From NCBI GenBank assembly GCA_965199855.1, contig OZ241326.1:2211908-2275907 (forward strand): a stretch of 64,000 nucleotides of DNA, written 5' to 3'. This document shows positions 26,372 through 60,785 of this stretch, in pieces. The translations under genes were made by a program, and so were the position numbers. The notes below the pieces were generated by a model. That model did no database searches, was not told where the DNA came from, and was given only the letters and a program-made list of their open reading frames with translations. Each line of letters begins with the position of its first letter. Positions within the stretch are counted from its first letter, which is position 1. This DNA comes from a bacterium. GTDB lineage: Bacteria; UBA8248.

Positions 26372-27690
26372 GGCGCGAGCGCCCCCCGCGCGGAGATTCG
26401 GAGCTCCCCGTCGAGCCGGCTCATCCGCACCTCTCCGCCGACGACGGCGGCCGCGGCGCAGCCCCTGAGCCTCCAGCCCGCGAAGGGCGTGTTCCTGCCG
26501 CGGCTCTCGAAGGCGTCCGGCTCCACGACCACCTCGCGCGCGGGGTCGAGCAGGGTCGCGTCCCCGGGCGCGCCCTCCCGCAGGGTGCCGTAGGGCAGGC
26601 CCAGCGCCTCGCAGGGCCCGGTGGTGAACTTCGCTATCATCTCGGCGAGGGTGAGCGCGCCCGCGCCCACCAGCCTGTCCAGGGCGAGGGAGACGGCCGT
26701 CTCCAGCCCCACGACGCCGAACGGCACGGCGTCGAACTCCCGCTGGGTCTCCGCCTCGTAGTGCGGGGCGTGGTCGGAGGCGATGACGGAGATGGTCCCG
26801 TCCTTCAGGCCCTCCAGGAGCGCGCGCCTGTCCTCCTCGCCGCGGAGCGGAGGCGCCATCTTCGCGGAGGAGTCGAACCCGCGCGTCGCCTCGTCCGTGA
26901 GGGAGAAGTGGTGCGGCGTCGCCTCGCCCGTCACCCGGAGGCCGCGCGCCCGCGCCCGGCGAACCATGTCCACCGCGCCGGCGGAGGAGAGATGCAGGAG
27001 GTGGAGCTTGCCCCCCGTCAGCTCCGCCAGCCGGATGTCCCGATAGACGCAGATGTCCTCGCTCGCCGCCGGGTTTCCGGCCAGGCCGAGCATGGTGGAC
27101 ACCGCGCCCTCGTTCATCACCCGGCCGGCCGAAAGCGAGGCGTCCTCCGCGTGGTCGAGCACGCTCACCCCCAGCATTCCGGCGTATTCGAGCGCGGAGC
27201 GCATGAGCGCGGCCGTCCGCACCGGCACGCCGTCGTCGCTGAAGGCCACCGCGCCGGCCTCCACCTGCTCGGCCATCTCGCTCAGCGCCTCTCCCTCCAG
27301 CCCCACCGAAACCGAGCCGACGGGAAACACGCGGCACGCCCCCACCTCGCGCGCGCGCTTGAGGATGCGCTCGGTGATCGAACTCGTGTCGTTCACCGGG
27401 TCGGTGTTCGCCATGCACGCCACGCCGGTGAAGCCGCCGGCGGCCGCGGCGCGGGTGCCGCTTTCGATGTCCTCCTTGTATTCCTGCCCCGGCTCGCGGA
27501 AGTGGACGTGCATGTCGATGAAGCCGGGCGCCACGACGAGGCCCGCGGCGTCGAGCACCTCGTCCCCCTCGCGCGGGGCGATGCTCCTCTCCCTGCGCGC
27601 GACCCTGCCCTCCTCTATCAGGAGGTCGCTCTCCTCATCGACACCCTGGGAGGGATCGACGACGCGCCCGCCCTTAATGAGCAACGGCAT
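26368..27690 (-). CDS. pyrC: dihydroorotase
   Basis: In-frame end of ORF 26368..28047. ATG 27690 gives MPLLIKGGRVVDPS...GFIDMHVHFREPG (HxH metal site). 440 aa. Confidence 0.93.
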   Translation of the reverse strand: MPLLIKGGRVVDPSQGVDEESDLLIEEGRVARRERSIAPREGDEVLDAAGLVVAPGFIDMHVHFREPGQEYKEDIESGTRAAAAGGFTGVACMANTDPVNDTSSITERILKRAREVGACRVFPVGSVSVGLEGEALSEMAEQVEAGAVAFSDDGVPVRTAALMRSALEYAGMLGVSVLDHAEDASLSAGRVMNEGAVSTMLGLAGNPAASEDICVYRDIRLAELTGGKLHLLHLSSAGAVDMVRRARARGLRVTGEATPHHFSLTDEATRGFDSSAKMAPPLRGEEDRRALLEGLKDGTISVIASDHAPHYEAETQREFDAVPFGVVGLETAVSLALDRLVGAGALTLAEMIAKFTTGPCEALGLPYGTLREGAPGDATLLDPAREVVVEPDAFESRGRNTPFAGWRLRGCAAAAVVGGEVRMSRLDGELRISARGALAP

Positions 27691-28693
27691 CCCGCGCCCC
27701 CCTTCGCGCCCTCTCCGGGGCGGCGTCCGCCTCCCCATCCGGCTCCGCCTCCTCCCGCTCCTCCTCCCTCCTGCCCGAGAGGAGATAGAGAATCGCCATG
27801 CGGCAGGCGACCCCGTATTCGACCTGCTCCAGAATGACGGAGAAGGGGCCGTCGGCCACGTCGGGAGCCATCTCCACCCCCCGGTTGATCGGCCCCGGGT
27901 GCATGATGAGCAGGTCCCGCCCGGCGTCCCGCAGCTTCTTCCTGGTGATCCCGTAGGAGCTGGCGTATTCGCGCTCGCTGGGAAAGGCGCCGCCGGCACC
28001 CCTCTCCAGCTGGATTCTGAGGGCGATGAGGACGTCCGCCCCGTCAATCGCCTCGTCGATCCGCGTCGTCGCGCGCGCGCCCAGGCATTCGACCTCGGCC
28101 GGCAGCATCGTGGAGGGGCCGCAGAAGGTGACCTCGGCGCCGAGCTTCAGGAGGCCGGCCGCGTTCGAGCGCGCCACGCGGCTGCGCGCGATGTCTCCCA
28201 CGATGGAGACGCGGAGCCCCTCGAACTTCTCCTTGTGCGCCCGGATGGTGTAGAGGTCGAGGAGCGCCTGGGTGGGATGCTCGTGGCAGCCGTCGCCCGC
28301 GTTCACGACGGCGCACCCGAGTTCGCGGCCCAGATAGGCGGGCGCGCCGGACGCCCAATGCCGCACGACGAGGACGTCCGTGGCCATCGCCTCGATGTTT
28401 CTCGCCGTGTCCCGCAGGGTCTCCCCCTTGCTCGCCGAGCTCGCGGCGACGGAGAGGTTGATGACGTCCGCCGAGAGGCGCTTGCCGGCGATCTCGAAGG
28501 AGGCGCGCGTCCTCGTGCTGTTCTCGAAGAACAGGTTGACGATCGTCTTGCCCCGCAGGGTGGGAACCTTCTTGACGGCGCGCTCGTTGATCTCGCGGAA
28601 GGAATCCGTCTGGTCGAGGAGAAACAATATCTCCCCGGGCTCGAGCTCCCGAATCGAGAGCAGATCCTTTCTCCGGTACGGCTCCGTTTTCAT
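27674..28693 (-). CDS. pyrB: aspartate carbamoyltransferase catalytic subunit
   Basis: ATG 28693 gives MKTEPYRRKDLLSIRELE. Contains FFENSTRTRASFE (carbamoyl-phosphate site) and HPTQ. The acidic C-terminal extension overlaps the pyrC start by 17 nt. Confidence 0.94.
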   Translation of the reverse strand: MKTEPYRRKDLLSIRELEPGEILFLLDQTDSFREINERAVKKVPTLRGKTIVNLFFENSTRTRASFEIAGKRLSADVINLSVAASSASKGETLRDTARNIEAMATDVLVVRHWASGAPAYLGRELGCAVVNAGDGCHEHPTQALLDLYTIRAHKEKFEGLRVSIVGDIARSRVARSNAAGLLKLGAEVTFCGPSTMLPAEVECLGARATTRIDEAIDGADVLIALRIQLERGAGGAFPSEREYASSYGITRKKLRDAGRDLLIMHPGPINRGVEMAPDVADGPFSVILEQVEYGVACRMAILYLLSGRREEEREEAEPDGEADAAPERARRGARDAVAH

Positions 28694-28715
28694 GGCGTCT
28701 CCCCCGCGGGCGTTT

Positions 28716-29252
28716 TCATTCCGGCTGCCGGAATCGCTTGAAGACGGCGTCCTCGCCGTCGGTCTCCTCAAGATGCACCCGCACCTCCTCGCCCCGCGCC
28801 GCCTCGACGTTCCTGCCGACGAAATCGGCGCGAATCGGCAGTTCGCGCCCCCCCCTGTCCACCAGAATCGCGAGCCGCGCCCTGCGGGGCCGGCCGAAGC
28901 TGACCAGCGCCGCCAGGGCGGCGCGCGCCGTCCGCCCCGTGCAGAGCACGTCGTCGACGAGAATCACGTCCTTCCCCTCGCAGGAGAAGGGAAGCTCCGT
29001 CTTCTTGAGCTTCGTCCGCGCGCCGCCGCCCCGGTTCAGGTCGTCCCGATAGAGGGTGACGTCGAGCGCGCCCACCGGCGGGCGCGAACCCGCCAGCGCG
29101 CGCAGCTCCCCGGCCAGCCTCTCGGCGAGCGGCGCGCCCCTCGTGCGGATGCCGATGAGCGCGAGCGCCGGCAGCTCCGCCGTCTGCTCGAGAATCTCGT
29201 GCGCGAGGCGCCTCAGCGTCCGCCTCAGCTGCCCGCCGTCGAGCTGCTTCAT
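28716..29252 (-). CDS. pyrR: bifunctional pyr operon regulator / uracil phosphoribosyltransferase PyrR
   Basis: ATG 29252 gives MKQLDGGQLRRTLRRLAHEILE. PRPP loop VILVDDVLCTGRTARAAL. 178 aa. First gene of the pyr operon, preceded by an attenuator. Confidence 0.92.
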   Translation of the reverse strand: MKQLDGGQLRRTLRRLAHEILEQTAELPALALIGIRTRGAPLAERLAGELRALAGSRPPVGALDVTLYRDDLNRGGGARTKLKKTELPFSCEGKDVILVDDVLCTGRTARAALAALVSFGRPRRARLAILVDRGGRELPIRADFVGRNVEAARGEEVRVHLEETDGEDAVFKRFRQPE

Positions 29253-29290: not shown

Positions 29291-29326
29291 AAAAAAAACG
29301 CCACGCCCCGGGGGGCATGGCGTTCG
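29291..29326 (-). terminator. intrinsic terminator of the pyrR leader (attenuator)
   Basis: On the minus-strand transcript the sequence reads ACGCCAUGCCCC-CC-GGGGCGUGGCGU followed by U8. This is a GC-rich stem with one G-U pair and then eight U. It sits about 40 nt upstream of the pyrR ATG. Confidence 0.7.
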
Positions 29327-29360
29327 GACGATGAGCGAAAAGACACCGGGCATCCGCGCT

Positions 29361-29398
29361 TCCTCCTTCGCCGCCTCACGGGACGGCATTAAAGGGGA
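29361..29398 (-). promoter_or_regulatory. PyrR-binding (anti-antiterminator) RNA hairpin
   Basis: The minus-strand transcript reads CCCCUUUAAUGCCGUCCCGUGAGGCGGCGAAGGAGG. The core UCCCGUGAGGC matches the PyrR loop consensus UCCAGAGAGGC at 9 of 11 positions. The flanking CCUUUAA...GAAGG lower stem fits the PyrR binding-site motif as I remember it. It lies directly upstream of the terminator. Confidence 0.6.
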
Positions 29399-29487
29399 AT
29401 CCCACGCTGTTCTCGTTCGGCGGCGGGCGCGCCGAGACTATTTGGCCGAACCTAGCAGTATTCTCCGCCGGGGGCAAGCGGAATTCC

Positions 29488-40666: not shown

Positions 40667-40696
40667 TTGACACGCAATCGCCGCAGGGTGGATCAT
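40667..40696 (+). promoter_or_regulatory. candidate sigma70-type promoter of the acd-acd-selenoprotein operon
   Basis: TTGACA (40667-40672), an 18-nt spacer, then GATCAT (40691-40696), about 50 nt upstream of ATG 40749. Pattern match only. Confidence 0.35.
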
Positions 40697-40748
40697 GGCG
40701 GGCGTCGAGCGCAACCATCATCCCAAACCAGCCTGCGGGAGCCGCGAG

Positions 40749-41921
40749 ATGAGCCTGCAAACCGAAGCCGCGCTTCAGTTCGACCTGGACGACACGCAAA
40801 AGATGCTTCGCCGGACGGTGCGGGAGCTCTCCGAGCGCCACATCGCCCCGCGCGCCGCCGAAATCGACGAGAACGAGGAATACCCCGAAGACATCTATCA
40901 GATGCAGAAGGAGCACGGCCTCCTCGGCATCTTCTTCCCCGAGGAATACGGCGGCGGCGGAATGGGCTTTCTGGGCGGCTGCGTCGCCATCGAGGAGATC
41001 GCGCGCTTCTGCTCGAACTCCCCGCTCTTCATCGTGCTCAACATGCTCTCGAGCCGCGTCATCGACCTGAGCGGCACGCCGGAGCAGAAGACGCATTATA
41101 TGACGGGCCTCGCCAGGGGCGAACTTCGGGGCTCCTACGCCCTCACGGAGCCCCACGCGGGCTCCGACGCCGGGAACATCCGCACGCGCGCCGTCCGGGA
41201 GGGCGAGGAGTGGGTCATCAACGGGACGAAATGCTTCTGCACGGGACCCGACAAGGCGGACTTCATCACCGTCGCCGCCAAGACCGACCCCGGCGCGGGC
41301 GCGCGGGGCATCACCTACTACGTCGTCCCCACGGACGCGCCCGGCTTCAGCATCGACAAGCACGAGCGCAAGATGGGGATGCGCGGCATCTCGACCTGCA
41401 TGCTGCGCTTCGACAGCGTGGCCGTGCCCCTCGAGAACCAGATCGGCGAGCTGAACCAGGGCTTCAGAACCGCGATGATCGGCTTCAACCAGATGCGGCC
41501 CGCCATCGGCGCGCGCGCGGTCGGCCTCGCCCAGGGGTGCCTCGACTACGCCGCGGGCTACGCGAAGGAGCGCGAGGCCTTCGGGAAGCCCATCGCCCGC
41601 CACCAGGCCGTCCAGTTCATGCTCGCCGACATGTTCATGGACATCGAGGCGTCGCGCCTGCTCGTCTATCGCGCCGCCTCGATGGTGGACGCCGGACAAA
41701 TCGGCAAGGAGAACGCCCGGTATTTCTCGACGGCCAAGACCTACGCGGCCGACATGGCGATGAAGTGCGCGATAGACGGCATCCAGGTGCTGGGCGGGGC
41801 GGGCTACATGAAGGATCACCCGCTCGAGCGCTTCATGCGCGACGCCAAGCAGATCCAGATCGTCGAGGGGACGAGCCAGATTCAGCGGATCATCATCGCC
41901 CGCAACCTGCTCGACCTCTAG
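40749..41921 (+). CDS. acyl-CoA dehydrogenase
   Basis: I prefer ATG 40749. Contains YALTEPHAGSDAG and GGAGYMKDHPLERFMRDAKQIQIVEGTSQIQR (catalytic Glu region). Confidence 0.92.
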   Translation: MSLQTEAALQFDLDDTQKMLRRTVRELSERHIAPRAAEIDENEEYPEDIYQMQKEHGLLGIFFPEEYGGGGMGFLGGCVAIEEIARFCSNSPLFIVLNMLSSRVIDLSGTPEQKTHYMTGLARGELRGSYALTEPHAGSDAGNIRTRAVREGEEWVINGTKCFCTGPDKADFITVAAKTDPGAGARGITYYVVPTDAPGFSIDKHERKMGMRGISTCMLRFDSVAVPLENQIGELNQGFRTAMIGFNQMRPAIGARAVGLAQGCLDYAAGYAKEREAFGKPIARHQAVQFMLADMFMDIEASRLLVYRAASMVDAGQIGKENARYFSTAKTYAADMAMKCAIDGIQVLGGAGYMKDHPLERFMRDAKQIQIVEGTSQIQRIIIARNLLDL

Positions 41922-41933
41922 GAGCGCGCGGAG

Positions 41934-43103
41934 GTGGGGCCGGGGGCGGAGCCGCCCGCCGCGTTCGGGCTGAGCCGGGCGCAGCGAGCGCTGGGAGAGA
42001 GGGTCTATGCGCTGAGCCGCCGCCGCGTCGCGCCCCGCGCCGCCGACATCGACGAAAGCGGGGAATACCCCGAGGATATTTTCCAGCTCCTGAAGTCCCG
42101 CGGCCTCCTCGGCCTCTACGTCCCCGAAGAATACGGCGGGGCGGGCCTCGGCGTCCTGGAGACGTGCGTCGCCATCGAGCAGATGGCGCGCTTCTGCTCG
42201 AACTCTCCCCTTTTCTTCTCCGTCCACCTGCTCGCCACCCGCGCCGTCGCCATAGGCGGAACCGGGGCGCAGAAGAGCGTCTGGCTCCGCGGCGTAGCCC
42301 GGGGCGAGCTGCGCCCCGCCTTCTCGCTCACCGAGCCGCACGCGGGCTCCGACGCCGCGAACATATCGGCGCGCGCGGCGCGGGAGGGGGACTCGTGGGT
42401 CATCAACGGCCAGAAGTGCTACTGCACCGGCGCGAGCGTCGCCGACTTCCTCACCGTGGCGGCGAAGACCGAGGCCGGGGCGGGGGCGCGCGGCGTCTCC
42501 TTCTTCATCGTTCCCAAGGGCGAATTCCGGGTGGGCCGCCGCGAGAGGAAGATGGGGATGCGGGGAATCCCCACCTGCGAGGTGTTTTTGGAGAACGCCC
42601 ACGTCCCCCTCGAAAACATCATCGGCGATCGGGCGACGGGCTTCAGAACCGCCATGCTCGGCTTCAACCAGGCGCGGCCCGCCATCGGCGCGCGCGCGGT
42701 CGGCCTCGCCCAGGGGTGCCTCGACCACGCCGCGGGCTACGCCAAGGAGCGCGAGGCCTTCGGGAAGCCCATCGCCCGCCATCAGGCCGTCCAGTTCATG
42801 CTCGCCGACATGTTCATGGACGTCGAGGCGTCGCGCCTGCTCGTTTACCGCGCCGCCTCGATGGTGGATAATGGGCGCTATCAAAAGGAGGACGCGCATT
42901 TCATCTGCGCCGCGAAGTGCTTCGCGTCCGACGCGGCCATGAAGGCGGCCGTGGACGCGGTTCAGACCCTGGGCGGGGCGGGCTATACGAGGGATCACCC
43001 GCTCGAGCGGTTTATGAGAGACGCCAAGCAGCTGCAAATCATCGAGGGGACGAACCAGATTCAGCGCATGGCGATCGCCCGGAATCTGCTGGGCCTGAAC
43101 TGA
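41934..43103 (+). CDS. acyl-CoA dehydrogenase (tandem paralog)
   Basis: 389 aa with a GTG start. Contains FSLTEPHAGSDAA and GGAGYTRDHPLERFMRDAKQLQIIEGTNQIQR. Long stretches are identical to the upstream paralog (REAFGKPIARHQAVQFMLADMFMD). Confidence 0.92.
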   Translation: MGPGAEPPAAFGLSRAQRALGERVYALSRRRVAPRAADIDESGEYPEDIFQLLKSRGLLGLYVPEEYGGAGLGVLETCVAIEQMARFCSNSPLFFSVHLLATRAVAIGGTGAQKSVWLRGVARGELRPAFSLTEPHAGSDAANISARAAREGDSWVINGQKCYCTGASVADFLTVAAKTEAGAGARGVSFFIVPKGEFRVGRRERKMGMRGIPTCEVFLENAHVPLENIIGDRATGFRTAMLGFNQARPAIGARAVGLAQGCLDHAAGYAKEREAFGKPIARHQAVQFMLADMFMDVEASRLLVYRAASMVDNGRYQKEDAHFICAAKCFASDAAMKAAVDAVQTLGGAGYTRDHPLERFMRDAKQLQIIEGTNQIQRMAIARNLLGLN

Positions 43104-43133
43104 CGCCTCGCTTCCCGCCGCCGGAGGTTACGG

Positions 43134-43754
43134 ATGAGCCGGACCATTGAAATTCTCACGCCCACCTCGTTCGTCCGCGCGGGCGATCATCCCCTGGCGG
43201 CGCGGCCGGGAGAGCTCGGCGGACTCAGAATCGGCTTTTTCCACAACAACAAGCCGAACGCCGACGCCCTCCTGGAGCGCATCGAGGAGCTCCTCGCGCG
43301 GGAGGACGAAACCCTCCGCTTCGTCCGCTGGGGAAAGCCGAACCCGACGCTGCCGGAGGCGCGCCTCGGCGAGTTCATCAAGCAGGTGGACGCGGCCGTC
43401 TGCGCGGTGGGCGACTGAGGCAGCTGCACGTCGTGGAGTATCCACGACGCGGTGGAGATGGAGAAAGCGGGGATTCCGACGGCCACGTTCTGCTCCAGCG
43501 AATTCTCCGCCCTGGGCGCGAACGAGCGGGTCGCCCTGGGGATGCCGGGCCTTCCGATAGTCGTCGTGCCGCACCCCGTGGGGGGGATTCCGCCCGAACG
43601 GGCGCGCGCCCTGGGGGACGCGGCGCTGGACGAGGTTCGGCGCGTCCTCACGGAGGACGCGGAATCGCTGCGAAGGGAATACCGCGAGCGCGCCTACGCC
43701 CCGCCCCGCCGGACGGTGCGCCACAAGGCGCTTTTCGCCCGGGGGTCGGCGTGA
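43134..43754 (+). CDS. UGSC-type selenoprotein (in-frame UGA = Sec at codon 95)
   Basis: Track ORFs 43134..43418 and 43452..43754 share one frame. They are separated only by TGA (43416-43418) and 11 sense codons. The joined reading is ...QVDAAVCAVGD-U-GSCTSWSIHDAVEMEKAGIPTATFCSSEF... The U-x-x-C motif and the SECIS-like hairpin directly downstream support Sec decoding. Confidence 0.8.
43416..43449 (+). other. UGA codon plus bacterial SECIS-like hairpin
   Basis: UGA at 43416-43418. Ten nt later there is a perfect 8-bp stem CGUCGUGG / CCACGACG (43429-43436 / 43442-43449) with apical loop AGUAU (G at the second loop position). The loop is centred about 21 nt after the UGA. Confidence 0.7.
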
Positions 43755-43800: not shown

Positions 43801-44892
43801 ATGAGCGATCCCTCCTCCGAAGCGCCTCCAGAAGCGGCGTCCCTCCCGAGCGAGCGGGTGAAGGTTCGGGACGCGCCCGAGGCGCTCGCGCGTCTCCTCG
43901 AGGCGAGGGGATGGGGCGACGGCCTGCCCGTCGTTCCCCCCACGCCCGGGCGCGTCGCCCGCATGGTGGAGGGGGCGGGGCTGGCCGCTGGGGAGGAAAT
44001 CGGCCGGATGCCGCCCCGCCAGGGAGTCGTCACGGTCGAGGCGCTCGCCGTCAACGCCGTGATGGCCGGATGCCTCCCGGCCTACATGCCCGTTCTCGTG
44101 GCGGCGGCGCGGGGGGCGCTCCAGCCGGAATTCTCGCTCCACGCGCTCCAGGCGACGACCCACCCGGTGGCGCCCCTGATCATCGTGAACGGCCCCGTCG
44201 CCGCGAGAATCGACATGAACGCGGCGTATGGATGCTTCGCCCCCGGAAACCGGGCGAACGCGACGATTGGCCGCGCGATGCGCCTGACGCTCCTGAACGT
44301 AGGCGGGGCGAGCCCGGGCGTTCTGGATCGCGCCACCCAGGGCTCGCCCGCGAAATACGCATTCTGCATCGCCGAGAACGAGGAGGAATCCCCCTGGGAG
44401 CCGCTGCACGTCGAGCGCGGCTTCGCGCCCGGGGAGAGCGCCGTCACGGTCGTGGGCTGCGAGGGGCCCCACAACGTCAACGATCACGTGAGCCACGCGG
44501 CGGAGGGCATTCTCGCCGCCGCCGCCGACACGATGTCCGTCATGGGCGGCAACAACTTCTATCTGAGGGGCGAGCCGCTCCTCGCGCTCGGCCCCGAGCA
44601 CGCGGCGACGATAGCGGGGGACGGGCTGTCGAAGGCGGACGTGAAGCGAAGGATTTTCGAGCTCGCCCGAAAGCCCGCGCGCCAGCTCCGGCGCGGCGCC
44701 ATGTGGGGGATGCAGACCTGGGGGGAGGAGATAGCGAGAAACGAGGGAGATGACGACTACGAGATTCCGCTTCTGGATCGGCCCGAAGACCTCATCGTCA
44801 TCGTGGCGGGCGGCGCCGGCAAGCACTCCTCCTACCTGCCGACGTTCGGCCCCACGCGCTCGGTGACCACCCGGGTCGATTCGCCGGCCTGA
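43801..44892 (+). CDS. conserved hypothetical protein (363 aa), operon partner of the selenoprotein
   Basis: Clean 363-aa ORF 46 nt after the selenoprotein stop. Codon usage is like its neighbours. Distinctive segments are RGWGDGLPVVPPTPGRV, AVNAVMAGCLPAYMP, YGCFAPGNRANATIGRA and VVGCEGPHNVNDH. I recognise no family. Confidence 0.7.
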   Translation: MSDPSSEAPPEAASLPSERVKVRDAPEALARLLEARGWGDGLPVVPPTPGRVARMVEGAGLAAGEEIGRMPPRQGVVTVEALAVNAVMAGCLPAYMPVLVAAARGALQPEFSLHALQATTHPVAPLIIVNGPVAARIDMNAAYGCFAPGNRANATIGRAMRLTLLNVGGASPGVLDRATQGSPAKYAFCIAENEEESPWEPLHVERGFAPGESAVTVVGCEGPHNVNDHVSHAAEGILAAAADTMSVMGGNNFYLRGEPLLALGPEHAATIAGDGLSKADVKRRIFELARKPARQLRRGAMWGMQTWGEEIARNEGDDDYEIPLLDRPEDLIVIVAGGAGKHSSYLPTFGPTRSVTTRVDSPA

Positions 44893-45069: not shown

Positions 45070-45471
45070 ATGCCGAAGCAGCAGATCGACTCGGAGAAGG
45101 TGAGGCCGGTGGCCGCGTATTCCACGGGCTGGAAGGTGTCGAACGGGCATCTCGTCATGCTGGCGGGCCAGGTGGCGACCGACACGGAGGGCCGCACCGT
45201 CGGCGGAGACGACATCAAGGCCCAGGCGCGGCAGGTCTATGAGAACGTCAAGGCCGCGCTCGAGGCCGCCGGCGCCGGAATGGAGGACGTCATCCGCCTC
45301 ACCGTCTATCTCACGGATCGGGCGAATTTTCCGGGAAGCGCGGAGGTGCGGCAAGCCTACTTCAGCCCGCCCTATCCGGCGAGCACGCTCCTCATCGTGA
45401 GCGGACTGGCGAACCCGGAATGGCTCATCGAAATCGACGCCGTCGCCTTCGTGGAGGACGGGACGCCGTGA
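45070..45471 (+). CDS. RidA-family (YjgF/UK114) protein
   Basis: 133 aa. Contains LVMLAGQVA, AQARQVYENVKAALEAAGAGMEDVIRLTVYL and IEIDAVA. Confidence 0.88.
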   Translation: MPKQQIDSEKVRPVAAYSTGWKVSNGHLVMLAGQVATDTEGRTVGGDDIKAQARQVYENVKAALEAAGAGMEDVIRLTVYLTDRANFPGSAEVRQAYFSPPYPASTLLIVSGLANPEWLIEIDAVAFVEDGTP

Positions 45472-46325
45472 GAGGCGGCAGGGCGGTTTCCGAGACGCTC
45501 GTTCTCGTGAAGGGGGGCGGCGACCTCGCCACCGGCGCGGCGCACCGCCTGCGCCGCTCGGGCTTTCCCGTGATGATGACGGAAATCGAGCGTCCGACCA
45601 TGGTCCGCCGCGCCGTCTCCTTCGCCGAATGCCTCTACGCCGGCGAATGGCGGGTGGAGGGCGTGGCTTCCGCGAGGGCGGAGGGCGGCTCCCTGGAGGA
45701 GAAAATCGCCGGCGCGCGCGCGCTGATGGAGGCGGGCGCCGTTCCCGTGATGGTCGATCCGCGCGCCGAGGCGGTCGCCCGCGTCCGGCCCGCCGTCGTG
45801 ATCGACGCGATTCTCGCCAAGCGAAACCTCGGCACCCGCATCGAGGACGCCGAGGTGGTCATCGGCCTGGGGCCCGGCTTCACGGCGGGGGTCGATTGCC
45901 ACGCCGTCATCGAGACCGCCCGGGGGCACGACCTGGGGCGGGTGATACTCGAAGGGGCGGCGAAGCCGGACACGGGCGCGCCGGGCGCCATCGCGGGCTA
46001 CGCCGCCGAGCGGCTGCTGCGCGCCCCGCGCGCCGGCGCGTTCGCCTCCGCCGCCCGCATCGGGGACGCGGTGCGGGCGGGACAGGCCGTCGCCCGGGTG
46101 GACGGGGAGGAGGTGACGGCCCGCATCGACGGCGTCCTGCGCGGCCTGCTCAGGGACGGCATCGAGGTGAGCGCGGGCTTCAAGGTGGGCGACGTCGACC
46201 CCAGGGCCGAGCCTTCCCACTGCGTGACGATATCGGACAAGTCGCGCGCCGTCGGCGGCGGCGCGCTCGAGGCCGTCATGATGTTCCTGTTCGGCGTCTC
46301 CCCGGCCGCGGAGCGCGCGAATTGA
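45468..46325 (+). CDS. yqeB: YqeB/EF2563-family selenium-dependent molybdenum hydroxylase system protein
   Basis: In-frame part of ORF 45420..46325. GTG 45468 overlaps the ridA stop (GTGA). LVLVKGGGDLATGAAHRLRRSGFPVMMTEIERPTMVRRAVSFAE...VIDAILAKRNLGT...GLGPGFTAGVDCHAVIETARGHDLGRVI...IDGVLRGLLRDG...VTISDKSRAVGGGALEA matches my memory of the YqeB/EF2563 family closely. Confidence 0.8.
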   Translation: MRGGRAVSETLVLVKGGGDLATGAAHRLRRSGFPVMMTEIERPTMVRRAVSFAECLYAGEWRVEGVASARAEGGSLEEKIAGARALMEAGAVPVMVDPRAEAVARVRPAVVIDAILAKRNLGTRIEDAEVVIGLGPGFTAGVDCHAVIETARGHDLGRVILEGAAKPDTGAPGAIAGYAAERLLRAPRAGAFASAARIGDAVRAGQAVARVDGEEVTARIDGVLRGLLRDGIEVSAGFKVGDVDPRAEPSHCVTISDKSRAVGGGALEAVMMFLFGVSPAAERAN

Positions 46326-47206
46326 GTCCCGACATTCTGGCGGAAACGGTGGAAAGCGGCGCCTACCGCATCGGGCGCAGCGAAATCCCGATCAACCAGG
46401 CGAACGGCAACGCCTTCGTCCCCCCCGCGCAGTTCTATCTGGCGGCGGGCGACGCGCTCGAGCGCATCGCGTGGGCGGTGAGCCAGAACCTCCCCGTCCT
46501 GCTCGTCGGAGAGACCGGCGTCGGCAAGACGCTCTCGGTGCGCTACCTCGCCCACATGACGAACAACGGCTTCAGGCGCGTGAACCTCAACGGCATGACC
46601 ACGGTCGATGAATTCGTGGGCAAGCTGATGATCAACGAGCAGGGCACCTACTGGGTGAACGGCATCCTGATCGACGCGATGCAGTCGGGAGACTGGCTGC
46701 TCATCGACGAGATCAACGCCTGCCTGCCCGAAATCGCCTTCTGCCTCCACAGCCTGCTCGACGACGACCGCATGATCGTCCTCTCGGAGTATGACGGCCG
46801 CGTCGTCAAGCCCCATCCGGACTTCAGGCTCTTCGCCAGCATGAACCCCCACGAGGACAGGAGATACGGCGGCACGAAGCCCCTGAACGAGGCGCTTCTG
46901 GATCGCTTCCCCGTCACCGTGAGGATGGACTACCTGCCCTTCGAGGCGGAGGTCGAGGTCATCATGCGGCAGAGCGGGAACGGCGACGAGGAGCTCGTCC
47001 GGCGCATGGTGCGCGTGGGCCACGACGCGCGCGAGGCCATGAGGAACGAAAAGGTGTTCTGCACCTTCAGCACCCGGCGCCTGATTGACTGGGCGCGCAT
47101 GGCGGCGCGGTTCGACCCCATGGAGGCCGCCGTCTCGACCATCTTCAGCAAGGTCAACTCGTTCGACGCCAAGGTGCTCGAGGACATCGTGGACAACCAC
47201 TTCTAG
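46322..47206 (+). CDS. CobS-like AAA+ ATPase (AAA_5 / MoxR-type)
   Basis: In-frame end of ORF 45629..47206. TTG 46322 overlaps the yqeB stop (TTGA). Walker A LLVGETGVGKT, Walker B DWLLIDEINA, then FRLFASMNP...LNEALLDRFPV. 294 aa. Confidence 0.8.
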   Translation: MSPDILAETVESGAYRIGRSEIPINQANGNAFVPPAQFYLAAGDALERIAWAVSQNLPVLLVGETGVGKTLSVRYLAHMTNNGFRRVNLNGMTTVDEFVGKLMINEQGTYWVNGILIDAMQSGDWLLIDEINACLPEIAFCLHSLLDDDRMIVLSEYDGRVVKPHPDFRLFASMNPHEDRRYGGTKPLNEALLDRFPVTVRMDYLPFEAEVEVIMRQSGNGDEELVRRMVRVGHDAREAMRNEKVFCTFSTRRLIDWARMAARFDPMEAAVSTIFSKVNSFDAKVLEDIVDNHF

Positions 47207-47221
47207 CCGGGAGACGCAGGC

Positions 47222-48991
47222 ATGGAGCGCCGACGCGCCCGCCTCGAGACCCTCGCGCAGGTGACGGCGCGCGACTACGGCCTCGCCCTGCTGTTCGGCT
47301 CCCGGACGGAGACCGGGGACGACGCCGTCCTCGTCGAGGACCCGGAGCGGACCCTGGCGCGCCTGGGCGGCGGCCTCGACGACGAGCGCGTCCTGCGATA
47401 CCAGAAGGGCATGACGCTCATCGAGGTGGCCCGCAGGCTCCAGGGGACGCTTCGCTGGGCGGGCCGCGCGGCCCTCGCCAACCGGGAGACGCCGGGCCTT
47501 TTCCACCTCTGGCGCGCCCTCGAGGACGCCAGATGCGAGAACCGCCTCGCCGAGTCGCTGCCCGGCACGAGAAAGAATTTCCGCGCCTTCGTCCGTCCCG
47601 CGATCGAGGACGCCGAGCGAAGCCACGCGCGGGGGGAGCTCCCCCTGCTTCTCCAGATTCAATGGGGCATCTACCTCGCCGGCGTCGGCCAGACGCCCGG
47701 CGCCGCCTCCTCAAGGCCCGGGGATTTGCCCTCGGCCTGGTTCGATTCCGTCATCGCCCAGATTCTTCAGAGGCTCGTCCCGATCATCGACCGCGCCTGC
47801 GCGGCCAAAGAGCCGAAGACCGCCTTCGACTGCGCGAACGAAATCTACGACGCCGTGCGGCGCTTCCTCACCGAGGAGCAGCTCGCGCAGATGCGCGAGA
47901 GCGAGGAGCTCTCGGAGCTTCCGGATGAAATTCTGGAGAAAATCGAGAACCAGAAACTCCAGGGGGAGGAGTCCGAGTCGCCGGAGGCGCTCCACCCGGA
48001 GGCGCTCGACGAGGTGGACGCGGACGAGGGCGAGCAGGTCGAGCTCACGCCCGAGGAGCTCGCCGCCCTGGGCCGCTGGGCGTCTCCCTGGTTCGAGATG
48101 GAGGGCGGCGGGAAGGAAGTCCACCCGACGGCGGAGCATCCCGACGAGCGCACCATCGTCCTGCCCCCGGAGGGCAAGGCGGAGGAATACGCGGCGATCA
48201 TGGACGGCGCGGGCAGCCACATCAAGGTGCTGGCGTGGAAGCTCACGCAGATCATTCAGGAGAGAGCCTACGCCCGCTTCAGCGGCTCGCACCGCTCCGG
48301 CAAGCTGAACGTCCCGAAGCTCTGGAAGCAGCGCCTGGGCAAATTTCATCTTTTTCACCGCAAGGAGGAGCCCGAGAAGCTCGACGTCTGCTTCACCCTC
48401 CTCGTGGACGAGAGCGGCAGCATGAACCGCGAATCGAAATACGTAGCCGCCAGGGAGGCGACCGTGTTCTTCGCGGAAGTCCTCGACCGGCTGGACGTGC
48501 CCTTCGAGGTGATCGGCTACTCCACCGAGAGCTCGGAGGCGGCCATGGCGGCCGCGCTCGGCCACATCCCCGCCTTCAAGTTCAGGCACATCCGGCACTC
48601 CCCCCTTCAGCACCGCATCTACAAGGGCTTCGAGGACGCCTTCCCCCAGGTCAAGAACCGTCTCGTCAACATTTATCCGCGCTTCAACAACTGGGACGAG
48701 GAGCATCTGCTGTTCGCCTACCGAAGGCTCAGCCAGCGGCCCGAGGAGGAGAAGATCATCATCATCACCTCGGACGGCCAGCCCAACGGCGACGCGGCCC
48801 ACCTCGTGAGCGCGGTCGGCCGCCTCCAGGCGCTCGGCGTGCGGATCATCGGCGTCGGCGTGGTGGACCCCTTCGTCGAGCAGATCTACCCGAACCACAT
48901 CGTGGTGCAGGACCTCTCCCAGCTCTCCACGGAGCTGGTGAACATTCTGCGGCGCGAGCTGCTCGGGGGGGCGGAGGGCCGCCCTTGGTAG
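47222..48991 (+). CDS. CobT-like protein with C-terminal von Willebrand factor A domain
   Basis: 589 aa. Helical N-terminal part, acidic linker, then a VWA domain with MIDAS motif LLVDESGSM...IIITSDGQPNG. Begins 15 nt after the AAA+ gene. Confidence 0.8.
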   Translation: MERRRARLETLAQVTARDYGLALLFGSRTETGDDAVLVEDPERTLARLGGGLDDERVLRYQKGMTLIEVARRLQGTLRWAGRAALANRETPGLFHLWRALEDARCENRLAESLPGTRKNFRAFVRPAIEDAERSHARGELPLLLQIQWGIYLAGVGQTPGAASSRPGDLPSAWFDSVIAQILQRLVPIIDRACAAKEPKTAFDCANEIYDAVRRFLTEEQLAQMRESEELSELPDEILEKIENQKLQGEESESPEALHPEALDEVDADEGEQVELTPEELAALGRWASPWFEMEGGGKEVHPTAEHPDERTIVLPPEGKAEEYAAIMDGAGSHIKVLAWKLTQIIQERAYARFSGSHRSGKLNVPKLWKQRLGKFHLFHRKEEPEKLDVCFTLLVDESGSMNRESKYVAAREATVFFAEVLDRLDVPFEVIGYSTESSEAAMAAALGHIPAFKFRHIRHSPLQHRIYKGFEDAFPQVKNRLVNIYPRFNNWDEEHLLFAYRRLSQRPEEEKIIIITSDGQPNGDAAHLVSAVGRLQALGVRIIGVGVVDPFVEQIYPNHIVVQDLSQLSTELVNILRRELLGGAEGRPW

Positions 48992-49011
48992 CGGAAGGCG
49001 GCCTCGCGCGG

Positions 49012-49812
49012 ATGATCGGCGCCCGAGCGGGGCGGATCGTCGCGGCGGTCGGGGCGGGGGGGAAAACGAGCCTGCTCACGGCGCTCGCCCGGGAGTTTCA
49101 CGCCCGAAGCGGCGCGCCCGCCCTCCTCACGACGACCACCAGAATTTTCGCGCCCCTGCCGGAGGAGGGGATTCCCCTCGCCCTGGGCGACGCCGCCGCC
49201 CTCTCGAGGAGGCTGCGCCCCTACATGAGAGCCTGCGGCGTCTCCTGGCTCGCCCGCGGACGCGAGGGCCGCGCGCCGGTTCCGGGCCGGGAGGGCGAGC
49301 GCCGCATGAAGCTGCGCGGCTTCGCGCCCTCCGAAATCGAGGGATTGCGTCTCGCGGAGGGCCTCACCCTCATCGAGGCGGACGGGGCGAGGCGCCTGCC
49401 CGTCAAGGCGCCCGGCGCGCGGGAGCCCGTCCTGCCCGAAGGCGTGGACGCCGTGCTGGGCGTCGTGGGGCTGGACGCCCTGGGCGCGCCCCTGGACGAG
49501 GCCCATGCGTTCCGCCCGGAGCTGCTCTCGCGGATATGCCGCCTGGACGCCGGCGCGGAGATCACGGCGGAGGCGATCGGGGCGCTGTGCGCGCACCCCG
49601 AGGGGCTGTTTCGCAAGGCGGACGGCGGCGCGCGCAGGTGGATCGTCCTCAACAAGGCCGATTTGGAAGCCTCGCTGGAAAAACGAAGAAAGATCGCCTA
49701 TACTATCCGGGAAATGGCGGGAAAGCCCCATGGGCCGGCGGACGGGGTTCTCCTGACCTCCTGCCTGAAGAACAGGCCGGAAGTTTTGCTGCGAATCGGG
49801 CCGGACGCCTGA
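49012..49812 (+). CDS. yqeC: YqeC-family selenium-dependent hydroxylase accessory protein
   Basis: In-frame end of ORF 48235..49812, starting at ATG 49012 (alternative TTG 48985). VAAVGAGGKTSLLTALA (P-loop), LLTTTTRIFAP, LIEADGARRLPVKAPGAREPVLP and HPEGLFRK...WIVLNKADL match the YqeC pattern I remember. Confidence 0.8.
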   Translation: MIGARAGRIVAAVGAGGKTSLLTALAREFHARSGAPALLTTTTRIFAPLPEEGIPLALGDAAALSRRLRPYMRACGVSWLARGREGRAPVPGREGERRMKLRGFAPSEIEGLRLAEGLTLIEADGARRLPVKAPGAREPVLPEGVDAVLGVVGLDALGAPLDEAHAFRPELLSRICRLDAGAEITAEAIGALCAHPEGLFRKADGGARRWIVLNKADLEASLEKRRKIAYTIREMAGKPHGPADGVLLTSCLKNRPEVLLRIGPDA

Positions 49813-49842: not shown

Positions 49843-50988
49843 ATGAGCGAGGACGTTTTCAGGGAAATGGCGAGGATGAAGGAGAAGGGGCAGGCGGGCG
49901 CGCTCGCCACCGTCGTGGCCCGCAAGGGCTCCGCGCCCATGAGCGGCGACGCGAAGATGCTCGTGCGCGAGGACGGCAGCGCCGAGGGCACCGTCGGGGG
50001 CGGCTGCCTGGAGGCCGAGGTCTGGGAGACCGCGATGAGCGTCCTCGAAACGGGCGCGCCCGAGAAGCTCTCCTTCGACCTCACCCAGAAGGAGGCGGAG
50101 GACAGCGGCCACATCTGCGGCGGCGTGGTGGAGATACTGGTGGAGCCGCTCCGGGCGTTTCCCCGGGAGCTGCTCGATGAGATCAACCGCGTGAAAAACC
50201 GGGGCGGAAGTGCCGCGCTGGCGACCATCGTCCAGCCGGGGGCGCTCGACATCCCGAAGCCCGAGGCCGGGAAAATGCTCTTCAGGCGCGACGGCAGCTC
50301 CGTGGGGGAAATTCCGCGCTATTCGGCGGAAGTCTGGGCGGAGAGCGCGCAGGTGATTCGCCAGGGCAGCCCCACCCTCCTGCACTTCAGCCAGGGCGCC
50401 GCGCGCGGCGGAGGAAAGAAGCCCGCGCCCGGCGAGGCGACCGAAATTTTCGTGGAGCCCATCTCCGGCCAGCCGCTCGTCTATATCTTCGGCGGCGGGC
50501 ACGTATCCTTCTGCGTCGCGCAGGCGGCCTGGCTCGCCGGCTTCCGGGTCGCCATCGTGGAGGACAGACCCTCCTTCGCCAACAAGGAGCGCTTCCCGAT
50601 GGCCGAGGCGTTCCACGTGGGCGATTTCCCGGAAGTTTTCAGGGAAATTCCGGTGGACGAGGCGGACTACCTGGCCATCATCACCCGGGGCCACGCGAAC
50701 GACGAGGTCGTCCTCGAATGGGCGATGAAGACGAAGGCGCGCTACATCGGGATGATCGGCTCGAAGAGCAAGGTGCTGCTCACCTACCGCCATCTTCAGG
50801 AGAAGGGCTTCGCGCGGAGCGAGCTCATCGAGCGCGTCCACGCGCCCATCGGCCTGGACATCGGCGCCGACACGCCGGGCGAGATCGGAATCGCCATCGC
50901 CGCCGAGTTCGTCCGCCATCGCCGCCGGGGCGAGGCGGAAAGCGAGGGCGCGGGCAGCAAGCGGGTGCGCCTGGGAAGAAAGGCGTAA
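49843..50988 (+). CDS. XdhC/CoxI-family molybdenum-cofactor insertion chaperone
   Basis: 381 aa. N-terminal XdhC_CoxI segment ALATVVARKGSAPMSGDAKMLV...GTVGGGCLEAEV. C-terminal Rossmann part LVYIFGGGHVSFCVAQAA...IITRGHANDEVVLEWAM...YIGMIGSKSK. Confidence 0.88.
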   Translation: MSEDVFREMARMKEKGQAGALATVVARKGSAPMSGDAKMLVREDGSAEGTVGGGCLEAEVWETAMSVLETGAPEKLSFDLTQKEAEDSGHICGGVVEILVEPLRAFPRELLDEINRVKNRGGSAALATIVQPGALDIPKPEAGKMLFRRDGSSVGEIPRYSAEVWAESAQVIRQGSPTLLHFSQGAARGGGKKPAPGEATEIFVEPISGQPLVYIFGGGHVSFCVAQAAWLAGFRVAIVEDRPSFANKERFPMAEAFHVGDFPEVFREIPVDEADYLAIITRGHANDEVVLEWAMKTKARYIGMIGSKSKVLLTYRHLQEKGFARSELIERVHAPIGLDIGADTPGEIGIAIAAEFVRHRRRGEAESEGAGSKRVRLGRKA

Positions 50989-58863: not shown

Positions 58864-60255
58864 ATGCTCGACCTCAAGCCTCCCGACGCGGCGATCGAAA
58901 TCCTCCGCGCCCTGCGCGCCGCGGGCCACCGGGCGCTTCTCGCGGGAGGCTGCGTGCGCGACGCCCTCCTCGGCCGCGAGCCCAGGGACTGGGACATCGC
59001 CACGGACGCGGGCCCCGAAGCCGCGCGGACCCTCTTCGAGAAGACCGTGGCCGTGGGCGCGCGGTTCGGCGTCTCGCGCGTCCTGCTGGACGGCCGGGAG
59101 TTCGAGGTGGCGCAGTTCCGGCGGGACGGCGCCTACGAGGACGGCAGGCGGCCCGCCTCGGTTCTTCCCACCAGCGAGGAGGAGGACGCGAGGCGGCGCG
59201 ACTTCACCATCAACGGAATGTTCTACGACCCGTTCGAGCGCCGCGCGCTCGACTACGTCGGCGGCCTGCGCGACCTCGACGGAAAAATCATCCGCGCCAT
59301 CGGGGACCCGAACCTCCGCTTCCGGGAAGATCATCTGCGGATGATGCGGGCGGCGCGCTTCTCGGCGCGGTTCGGCTTCGACATCGAGCCGGCGACCGCC
59401 GCCGCCGTCCGCGCCAACGCCGGGCGCATCTCCAGAATAAGCCCCGAGAGGATTCAGGAGGAGCTGACGGCGATGCTCACCGGGGAGAATCCCCATCGCG
59501 CCCTCGCCGCGCTGGATTCGCTCGGACTCCTCGAATGCGTCCTGCCCGAGGTCGCCGCCATGAAGGGGGTGGCGCAGCCGCCGGAATTCCACCCCGAGGG
59601 CGACGTCTGGACGCACGTCCTCCTCATGCTGGCGCTCATGCGCGCCCCCTCGCCCGCGCTCGCCTGGGGCGTCCTGCTCCACGACGTCGGAAAGCCCGCC
59701 ACCTACGCGGAGGCCGACCGCATCCGCTTCAACGGGCACGACAGGGCGGGGGCGGAGATGAGCGCGAACGTCTGCGGCAGGCTGCGCATGTCCGGCGCGC
59801 GCGCGTCGAGGATTCGGGAGCTGGTCGCCAACCACATGCGCTTCATGCGCGTGGAGAAGATGCGGGAGAGCCGCCTGAAGCGGCTGCTCCGCGAGCCCTG
59901 CTTCGAGGAGCTCCTGGAGCTGCACCGCCTCGACTGCCTCGCCAGCCACGGCGATTTGAGAACCCATGAATTCTGCGTCCGGAAACGGCGCGCGCTCCGG
60001 GAGGAGGCCCTCCGCCCGCCGCGCCTGCTGGACGGCCGCGAACTGATGAAAATGGGCTATCCGCCGGGGCCGGGGCTGGGGGAGATTCTCGCCGCCATCG
60101 AGGACGCGCAGCTCGAGGGCCGCGTCTCCACCGCCGCGCAGGCCAGGGATTTCACGAGGCGAAACTTCGCCCTTCCGGAGACTCGCCCCTCCGGAAAGCC
60201 GCGCGCTCCCGCGCGGGCCGACCCGCCTCCCGGCGACCGCGGGGAGCGGCCATGA
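58864..60255 (+). CDS. cca: CCA tRNA nucleotidyltransferase (pol-beta NTase + HD domain)
   Basis: ORF 58840..60255; I prefer ATG 58864. LLAGGCVRDALLG...DWDIAT (NTase motif), FRRDG...RRDFTINGMFYD, and the HD region VLLHDVGKP. Confidence 0.85.
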   Translation: MLDLKPPDAAIEILRALRAAGHRALLAGGCVRDALLGREPRDWDIATDAGPEAARTLFEKTVAVGARFGVSRVLLDGREFEVAQFRRDGAYEDGRRPASVLPTSEEEDARRRDFTINGMFYDPFERRALDYVGGLRDLDGKIIRAIGDPNLRFREDHLRMMRAARFSARFGFDIEPATAAAVRANAGRISRISPERIQEELTAMLTGENPHRALAALDSLGLLECVLPEVAAMKGVAQPPEFHPEGDVWTHVLLMLALMRAPSPALAWGVLLHDVGKPATYAEADRIRFNGHDRAGAEMSANVCGRLRMSGARASRIRELVANHMRFMRVEKMRESRLKRLLREPCFEELLELHRLDCLASHGDLRTHEFCVRKRRALREEALRPPRLLDGRELMKMGYPPGPGLGEILAAIEDAQLEGRVSTAAQARDFTRRNFALPETRPSGKPRAPARADPPPGDRGERP

Positions 60256-60785
60256 CGCGAACCTCCATCATGACGGCGCGCGAGCTCGAAATCTCCCTCG
60301 GAAGAATCGCTTCCGAGATGGCGGAGGCGCGCGCGGCGGACGCGGGTCTCGCCCTCGTCGGAATCCTCACGCGCGGCGAGCCGCTGGCGCGGAGGCTCCG
60401 CAGGCGCATTCAGGAGCTCGAGAACGTCGCGCCCGCCCTCGGCGCCCTCGACATCGGAATTCACCGCGACGACGCGGGACACCCCGCGAAGGGGCGCGGC
60501 TTCGAGCCGACGCTCATCGACTTCGACATCACCGACCGCCACGTCTTCCTGGTGGACGACGTGTTCTTCACGGGCCGAACCGCGCGCGCCGCCCTGGACG
60601 CCCTGATGGAGCTGGGGCGGCCGAAGCGCATCTGGCTCGCCGTCCTGATAGATCGGGGACACCGGGAGCTGCCCTTCCGCCCCGACTTCATCGGCAAGAG
60701 CGTGCCCACCTCGCTCGATGAGCGCGTCCAGGTGCGGATGCGGGAGGTGGACGGCGAGGACGGGGTATGGCTCGCGAAAGGATGA
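60252..60785 (+). CDS. second PyrR/uracil phosphoribosyltransferase paralog
   Basis: 177 aa. LALVGILTRGEPLARRL...HVFLVDDVFFTGRTARAALDAL...AVLIDRGHRELPFRPDFIGK. The ATG overlaps the cca stop (ATGA). No leader or attenuator. Confidence 0.85.
   Translation: MTRTSIMTARELEISLGRIASEMAEARAADAGLALVGILTRGEPLARRLRRRIQELENVAPALGALDIGIHRDDAGHPAKGRGFEPTLIDFDITDRHVFLVDDVFFTGRTARAALDALMELGRPKRIWLAVLIDRGHRELPFRPDFIGKSVPTSLDERVQVRMREVDGEDGVWLAKG

Follow-up and report, generated by a model that had tools for sequence, protein, structure and literature searches.

The 'UGSC-containing protein' was recorded in 2007 as a selenoprotein of unknown function (PMC1976440), and in the aquatic GOS metagenomes UGSC ranked among the most abundant selenoprotein families, being represented by 255 Sec forms and 21 Cys forms and enriched in non-marine samples (PMC2398784). 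The literature groups UGSC with the thioredoxin-like folds, and reviews of 2022 and 2026 still describe it as uncharacterised. The gene that we describe here, at 43134..43754 on the forward strand of a 64-kb window (the whole stretch of DNA that was analysed), shares with the published family (NF041046, PF24696; PMC1976440, PMC2398784) the U-G-S-C motif, the Cys/Sec pairing, the position of the SECIS and a high abundance in environmental bacteria, and it does not differ from that family in any essential respect. Since UGSC has been known since 2007-2008, the window holds a mis-called new member of an already-known family, and neither the selenoprotein nor its SECIS is new as such. What is new is the recognition of the gene that follows, 43801..44892, as an obligate UGSC partner, together with a flavodoxin-like model of the UGSC domain and downstream YqeB and YqeC genes that make SelD probable in this genome. 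We consider it very likely that 43134..43754 is a single UGSC selenoprotein gene, that its UGA is decoded via a SECIS and that its product works with this partner.

The gene comprises 206 codons plus a TGA stop and is preceded by a Shine-Dalgarno-like GGAGG (43123..43127, forward strand), which can be read directly from the sequence 6 nt 5' of the ATG. A single in-frame TGA (43416..43418, forward strand) interrupts 43134..43754 at codon 95, within the D-U-G-S-C motif, and the two resulting ORFs, 43134..43418 and 43452..43754, belong to one frame and are set apart by this TGA (43416-43418) and 11 sense codons (43419-43451). Read through, 94 residues, U and a further 111 residues form a continuous protein of 206 residues, with U95 in the context ...CAVGD-U-GSCTSWSIHD.... 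A sequence-only reading of the window had described the same layout, a split ORF pair in a common frame with a 206-residue read-through product and U95, and we reproduced it from the sequence. It had also anticipated that standard gene callers miss or truncate the gene, and they do split it: public gene calls on two contigs with the same locus consist of a 94-aa and a 98-aa piece, each matching PF24696. Moreover, a database entry that is 99% identical to the gene product ends exactly at D94, and dozens of UGSC half-proteins of 94-98 aa are present in the protein database. Three more matches were considered as in-frame TGA candidates in the window and were rejected, all of them being merely adjoining genes in a common frame.

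Profile searches with the 206-residue read-through protein, in which U was written as C, gave 136.4 bits against NCBIfam NF041046 'UGSC family (seleno)protein' (curated cut-off 125) and 161.8 bits against Pfam PF24696 (cut-off 25; model positions 1-171 of 172 covered). The UGSC assignment of the sequence-only reading is thus upheld by both curated cut-offs. D94, C95, G96, S97 and C98 are invariant in an alignment of 25 homologs. The in-frame UGA aligns with the first Cys of the CGSC motif: Cys-form homologs have C-G-S-C at position 95, with TGY at the codon corresponding to the UGA, and the protein is uninterrupted beyond this point. Cys at position 95 with continuation downstream is what the homolog alignment was expected to reveal if the split pair were one gene, and termination at residue 94 is not the rule. 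The named database fragments nearest to the window protein derive from Nitrospinota and Tectomicrobia MAGs.

One genome per species was scanned with the nucleotide pattern GGN GAY TGA GGN WSN TGY ACN WSN TGG, which returned at least 120 loci (121 matches). Among the matches listed, 120 of 121 are genuine UGSC homologs (E between 1e-12 and 1e-119), and in these 120 TGA homologs the frame stays open for at least 80 codons beyond the TGA wherever the locus permits. The hosts of the TGA form, among the matches listed, include Betaproteobacteria, Acidobacteriota, Binatia, Chloroflexota, Nitrospinota, Bacillota and other groups. When the window gene is compared with that of its relative L035, substitutions at the three codon positions number 7/12/32 upstream of the TGA and 11/10/28 downstream. 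The same third-position excess on both sides is seen with L051 and L083, which together with L035 are the three closest relatives. This bias on either side of the TGA shows that both halves are translated in frame. TGA is also the stop of 15 of the 27 family-supported genes in the window, where it is the commonest stop codon, and UGA is therefore not reassigned genome-wide.

The window contains no tRNA gene within its 64 kb, tRNA-Sec included, and SelA, SelB and SelD were not found among the approximately 43 window ORFs scanned. It does encode YqeB (45420..46325, forward strand; TIGR03309, 347.6 bits versus a cut-off of 220) and YqeC (within 48994..49812, forward strand; TIGR03172, 164.9 bits versus 73), whose joint presence is the published hallmark of the selenium-cofactor trait that depends on SelD (PMC5029168). 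On the basis that both are present, the genome probably encodes SelD, and the host very probably activates selenium. YqeB and YqeC, both within about 6 kb of UGSC, flank an AAA_5/CbbQ-type ATPase, a CobT-like VWA protein and XdhC in a selenium-cofactor maturation cluster 1.7-7 kb downstream of the UGSC gene (further cluster ORFs at 45629..47206, 47222..48991 and 49843..50988); no molybdenum hydroxylase gene was found near the cluster among the ORFs scanned. YqeB occurs near UGSC in one of the 120 listed Sec loci, and the linkage is not conserved.

Elsewhere in the window, two tandem acyl-CoA dehydrogenase genes (40695..41921 and 41934..43103, forward strand) directly precede UGSC, from which 30 nt separate them, and have a promoter-like site in front (40667-40696); this pair is probably in one operon with UGSC here. 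A PyrR-binding leader (29291..29399, reverse strand; RF00515, 56.3 bits) is located upstream of a pyrimidine operon with an aspartate carbamoyltransferase gene (27674..28771), and pyrR itself (60252..60785, forward strand) adjoins a CCA-adding enzyme gene about 31 kb from this leader. A 710-aa DNA methyltransferase (4260..6392, reverse strand) resembles the MAD2 protein of the MADS defence system (NF047738), with 288.8 bits well under the cut-off of 720, so that membership is not confirmed.

A hairpin, CGUCGUGG-AGUAU-CCACGACG (43429..43449, forward strand), begins 10 nt past the UGA. Its 8-bp stem (43429-43436 / 43442-43449) encloses the 5-nt loop A-G-U-A-U (43437-43441), in which G occupies loop position 2; alternatively, the stem has 9 bp and the loop 3 nt if the A-U pair closes. 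The spacing from UGA to loop is 18 nt and the hairpin alone folds with -13.5 kcal/mol. In the published bSECIS model (PMC13188914, Fig. 2) the loop has 3-9 nt and the upper stem 4-16 bp, a G lies at loop position 1 or 2 (most often N1-G-[G|U]-N-N2), 16-37 nt separate the UGA from the apical loop and the MFE is -7.5 kcal/mol or lower. The 43429-43449 hairpin falls within all four of these published constraints, in agreement with the SECIS-like geometry first attributed to it. Like the fdhF-type SECIS of E. coli and the bSECISearch consensus it lies within the coding sequence directly after the UGA; the E. coli fdhF element is longer and more complex. Rfam searches found no SECIS, whether over the entire window with gathering thresholds or over 43300-43600 with E <= 10. 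Folded as a single sequence, the hairpin gives z = -1.39, with 15 of 200 shuffles equally stable; because such a fold is unremarkable by itself in DNA of 68% G+C, the argument rests on comparison across genomes.

That comparison bears directly on the possibility that the hairpin has no function as RNA and only reflects how the conserved T-S-W...H-D peptide is encoded in G+C-rich DNA, as might be supposed from a stem made of conserved codons and from single-sequence folding that is not significant. Among the matches listed, the hairpin lies at the same offset across 111 distinct Sec-form sequences and the loop is N-G-U in 106 of them. In the ungapped alignment of the Sec forms listed, 88% of the stem cells are paired, versus 18-58% in controls with shifted 3' partners; double-sided stem changes number 43 where 6.5 are expected, and the observed covariation score was reached by 0 of 500 shuffles, a figure that, given the kinship of the sequences, overstates their independence. 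Because the stem consists of conserved T-S-W and H-D codons, we retrieved a Cys-form control with the same nucleotide pattern, TGY replacing TGA. Stem pairs average 6.98 of 8 in Sec forms and 4.27 in Cys forms (all sequences among the matches listed). When the peptide is matched (T-S-W-x-[I/V]-H-D), the full 7-bp core stem is present in 74/79 of the Sec forms listed versus 2/14 Cys forms, with the reservation that the two sets come from separate collections of phylogenetically related sequences, so that the Fisher figure likewise overstates independence and p-values are indicative only. With an identical peptide, the Sec forms listed encode the stem Ser by UCG or UCA only, UCA always being paired with CAU (L035 and L083, the closest relatives, are examples), whereas the Ser codons of Cys forms include UCC, UCU and AGC. 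In the sub-families T-T-W-C-S-H-V and T-W-W-G-S-H-D the peptide itself differs, yet both arms of the stem have changed so that pairing is maintained. AGU, the Ser codon in the loop, accounts for 1.8% of Ser codons in window genes. A mere by-product of the peptide is accordingly highly improbable, and the conservation of the hairpin in TGA orthologs, on which the claim of a SECIS had been made to depend, is borne out by its covariation there and by its weaker pairing in Cys forms. These data support 43429-43449 as a predicted bacterial SECIS that is conserved with compensatory synonymous changes. As a separate case, the Sec-form gene L078 (on the reverse strand, with its TGA at index 6129 in reverse-complement numbering) is without the standard stem and has another 8-bp hairpin, GGCUGGUC-guu-GACCAGUC, displaced a few nt downstream, which may be an independently re-evolved SECIS.

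Two other explanations concern the UGA itself. If the TGA were a genuine stop, the locus would represent a pseudogene, a sequencing error or two small genes (94 aa and 100 aa), as the two pieces annotated by gene callers, the status of TGA as the usual stop codon of the genome and the lack of Sec machinery among the window ORFs scanned might suggest. We regard this as extremely improbable in view of the recurrence of this TGA across many phyla (at least 120 confirmed homologs carry the identical TGA, and their frame continues for 80 or more codons beyond it), the equal third-position substitution pattern in both halves, the continuous proteins of the Cys-form homologs, the curated full-length models that bridge the junction and the covarying SECIS stem. 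It is also very unlikely, albeit to a slightly lesser degree, that the UGA is read through without Sec, for example as near-cognate Trp or Cys, by a host whose Sec machinery has been lost: lineages that lose Sec normally have TGY at this codon, as in the Cys-form loci, YqeB together with YqeC implies selenophosphate production, and the upkeep of a SECIS by compensatory synonymous changes, including those in L035 and L083, would be pointless without SelB, while what speaks for such read-through is that selA, selB and tRNA-Sec were not seen in the 64-kb window. A single selenoprotein encoded by the split pair, as the sequence-only reading had it, is the interpretation that stands, since the family cut-offs are passed, the TGA homologs read through and the hairpin covaries.

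The partner gene (43801..44892, forward strand), which starts 46 nt downstream of the UGSC gene, encodes 363 aa. Neither Pfam nor NCBIfam returned a match to it even at E <= 1, and it has no sequence relative in the PDB and no solved structural relative; its AF2 model is nonetheless confident (pTM 0.90). The partner is homologous to the C-terminal extension of fused UGSC ORFs (43/121 of the Sec-form ORFs listed, E down to 1.6e-115). UGSC/Unknown_1 fusions were noted in the GOS selenoproteome (PMC2398784, Figure S1A), and the partner is evidently this 'Unknown_1' fusion domain, with the difference that UGSC and partner are separate genes, 46 nt apart, in the window. By tblastn the partner was detected at 106/106 Sec loci (among those listed) and 75/75 Cys loci with enough room, nearly always fused to UGSC or immediately downstream of it. 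Conversely, two partner homologs that had been picked blind to UGSC both have a TGA-type UGSC gene directly upstream. When the neighbouring ORFs of the 207 listed loci were clustered, the partner was found at 195, MmgE/PrpD at 14 and acyl-CoA dehydrogenase at 11, and no third gene was consistently conserved beside UGSC and partner. The acyl-CoA dehydrogenases, RidA, YqeB and amidohydrolase of the window were rejected as conserved neighbours, occurring at 5, 1, 1 and 3 of the 120 listed Sec loci, respectively. Judged from this gene linkage, the association of UGSC with its partner is obligate, for Sec and Cys forms alike.

The partner family comprises at least 7,991 sequence clusters, every one of them annotated as 'hypothetical', and has many invariant polar residues as well as two invariant Cys (C91 and C189). 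Within L121-L228, 28 low-G+C Cys-form UGSC+partner loci (e.g. L163, L173 and L217) share synteny that includes ORFs which, judged by eye from their sequences, resemble class I lysyl-tRNA synthetase and ThiC. This group looks archaeal; if so, archaea would have the module in its Cys form.

The UGSC fold was modelled (AF2) on the Cys homolog P0009, standing in for the window protein. The P0009 model is a (beta-alpha)5 flavodoxin-like domain (pLDDT 94.8) that had no thioredoxin-fold matches and does not show the beta-alpha-beta-alpha-beta-beta-alpha arrangement of thioredoxin-fold selenoproteins. The UGSC domain thus models as flavodoxin-like and not as a thioredoxin fold. In the P0009-based model the Sec position is in the turn before a helix, and the resolving Cys of U-G-S-C in the first turn of that helix.

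A remote likeness links UGSC to selenoprotein B of the glycine, sarcosine, betaine and D-proline reductases (GrdB/GrdF/PrdB), with which it has in common the U-x-x-C arrangement and a weak similarity over the Sec-bearing C-terminal region: UGSC residues 84-176 match TIGR01917 positions 336-416 (E 1.3e-4), and 5 of 25 family members likewise gave a match to TIGR01917. The scores (21 bits versus a cut-off of 602 for TIGR01917 and 15 bits versus 65 for TIGR01918) are far under the cut-offs and the C-terminal 80 model positions alone align, and we therefore rejected membership in the GrdB/PrdB-type selenoprotein B family in favour of remote similarity only. GrdB has an N-terminal part of about 335 residues that the UGSC protein is without, the UGSC partner has no similarity to GrdE/PrdA, and no grdA/grdC-type genes lie near UGSC. 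UGSC is found mostly in aerobic environmental lineages, whereas GrdB belongs to Stickland fermenters. The pairing of selenoprotein B with a second catalytic polypeptide is an arrangement that we likewise propose for UGSC and its partner.

We envisage that, during translation, codon 95 (UGA) directs the insertion of selenocysteine, with SelB-GTP-Sec-tRNA(Sec) binding the G-U apical loop of the hairpin and bringing Sec to the ribosome; we infer SelB-mediated insertion because it is the standard bacterial mechanism and the required sequence features are present. The Sec would then serve as a redox-active or nucleophilic selenol, for which the modelled motif geometry is the usual one, and could close a selenenylsulfide with Cys98. 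On the basis of gene linkage, motif geometry and the weak GrdB similarity, a two-part enzyme of UGSC and the 363-aa partner, with the partner holding the substrate, is the most likely arrangement: a small substrate would be bound and converted by the partner, which is rich in invariant polar residues and has two invariant Cys, and the nucleophile or reducing equivalents would come from the U-x-x-C domain, in the manner of selenoprotein B in the glycine and proline reductases. A faint hint that the substrates are small carboxylic acids comes from weak structural matches and from MmgE/PrpD or acyl-CoA dehydrogenase genes that occasionally lie nearby. The more specific proposal that UGSC and partner form a widespread two-component selenoenzyme of aerobic bacteria and archaea, a distant analogue of GrdB/PrdB acting on a small substrate of the carboxylic-acid type, is speculative, and we rate it as rather unlikely in this full form. 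If it were true, the catalytic fold of the partner would be a new one, served by a selenol/thiol U-x-x-C arm.

Recognition of the Sec codon restores the full-length protein, and many such genes are stored as fragments of 94-98 aa. The partner family, in turn, is a sizeable hole in the domain databases. With a constant unannotated partner, a flavodoxin-like fold and a resemblance to the Sec region of GrdB, the function of UGSC becomes more approachable, and the UGSC-partner module is the most useful lead.
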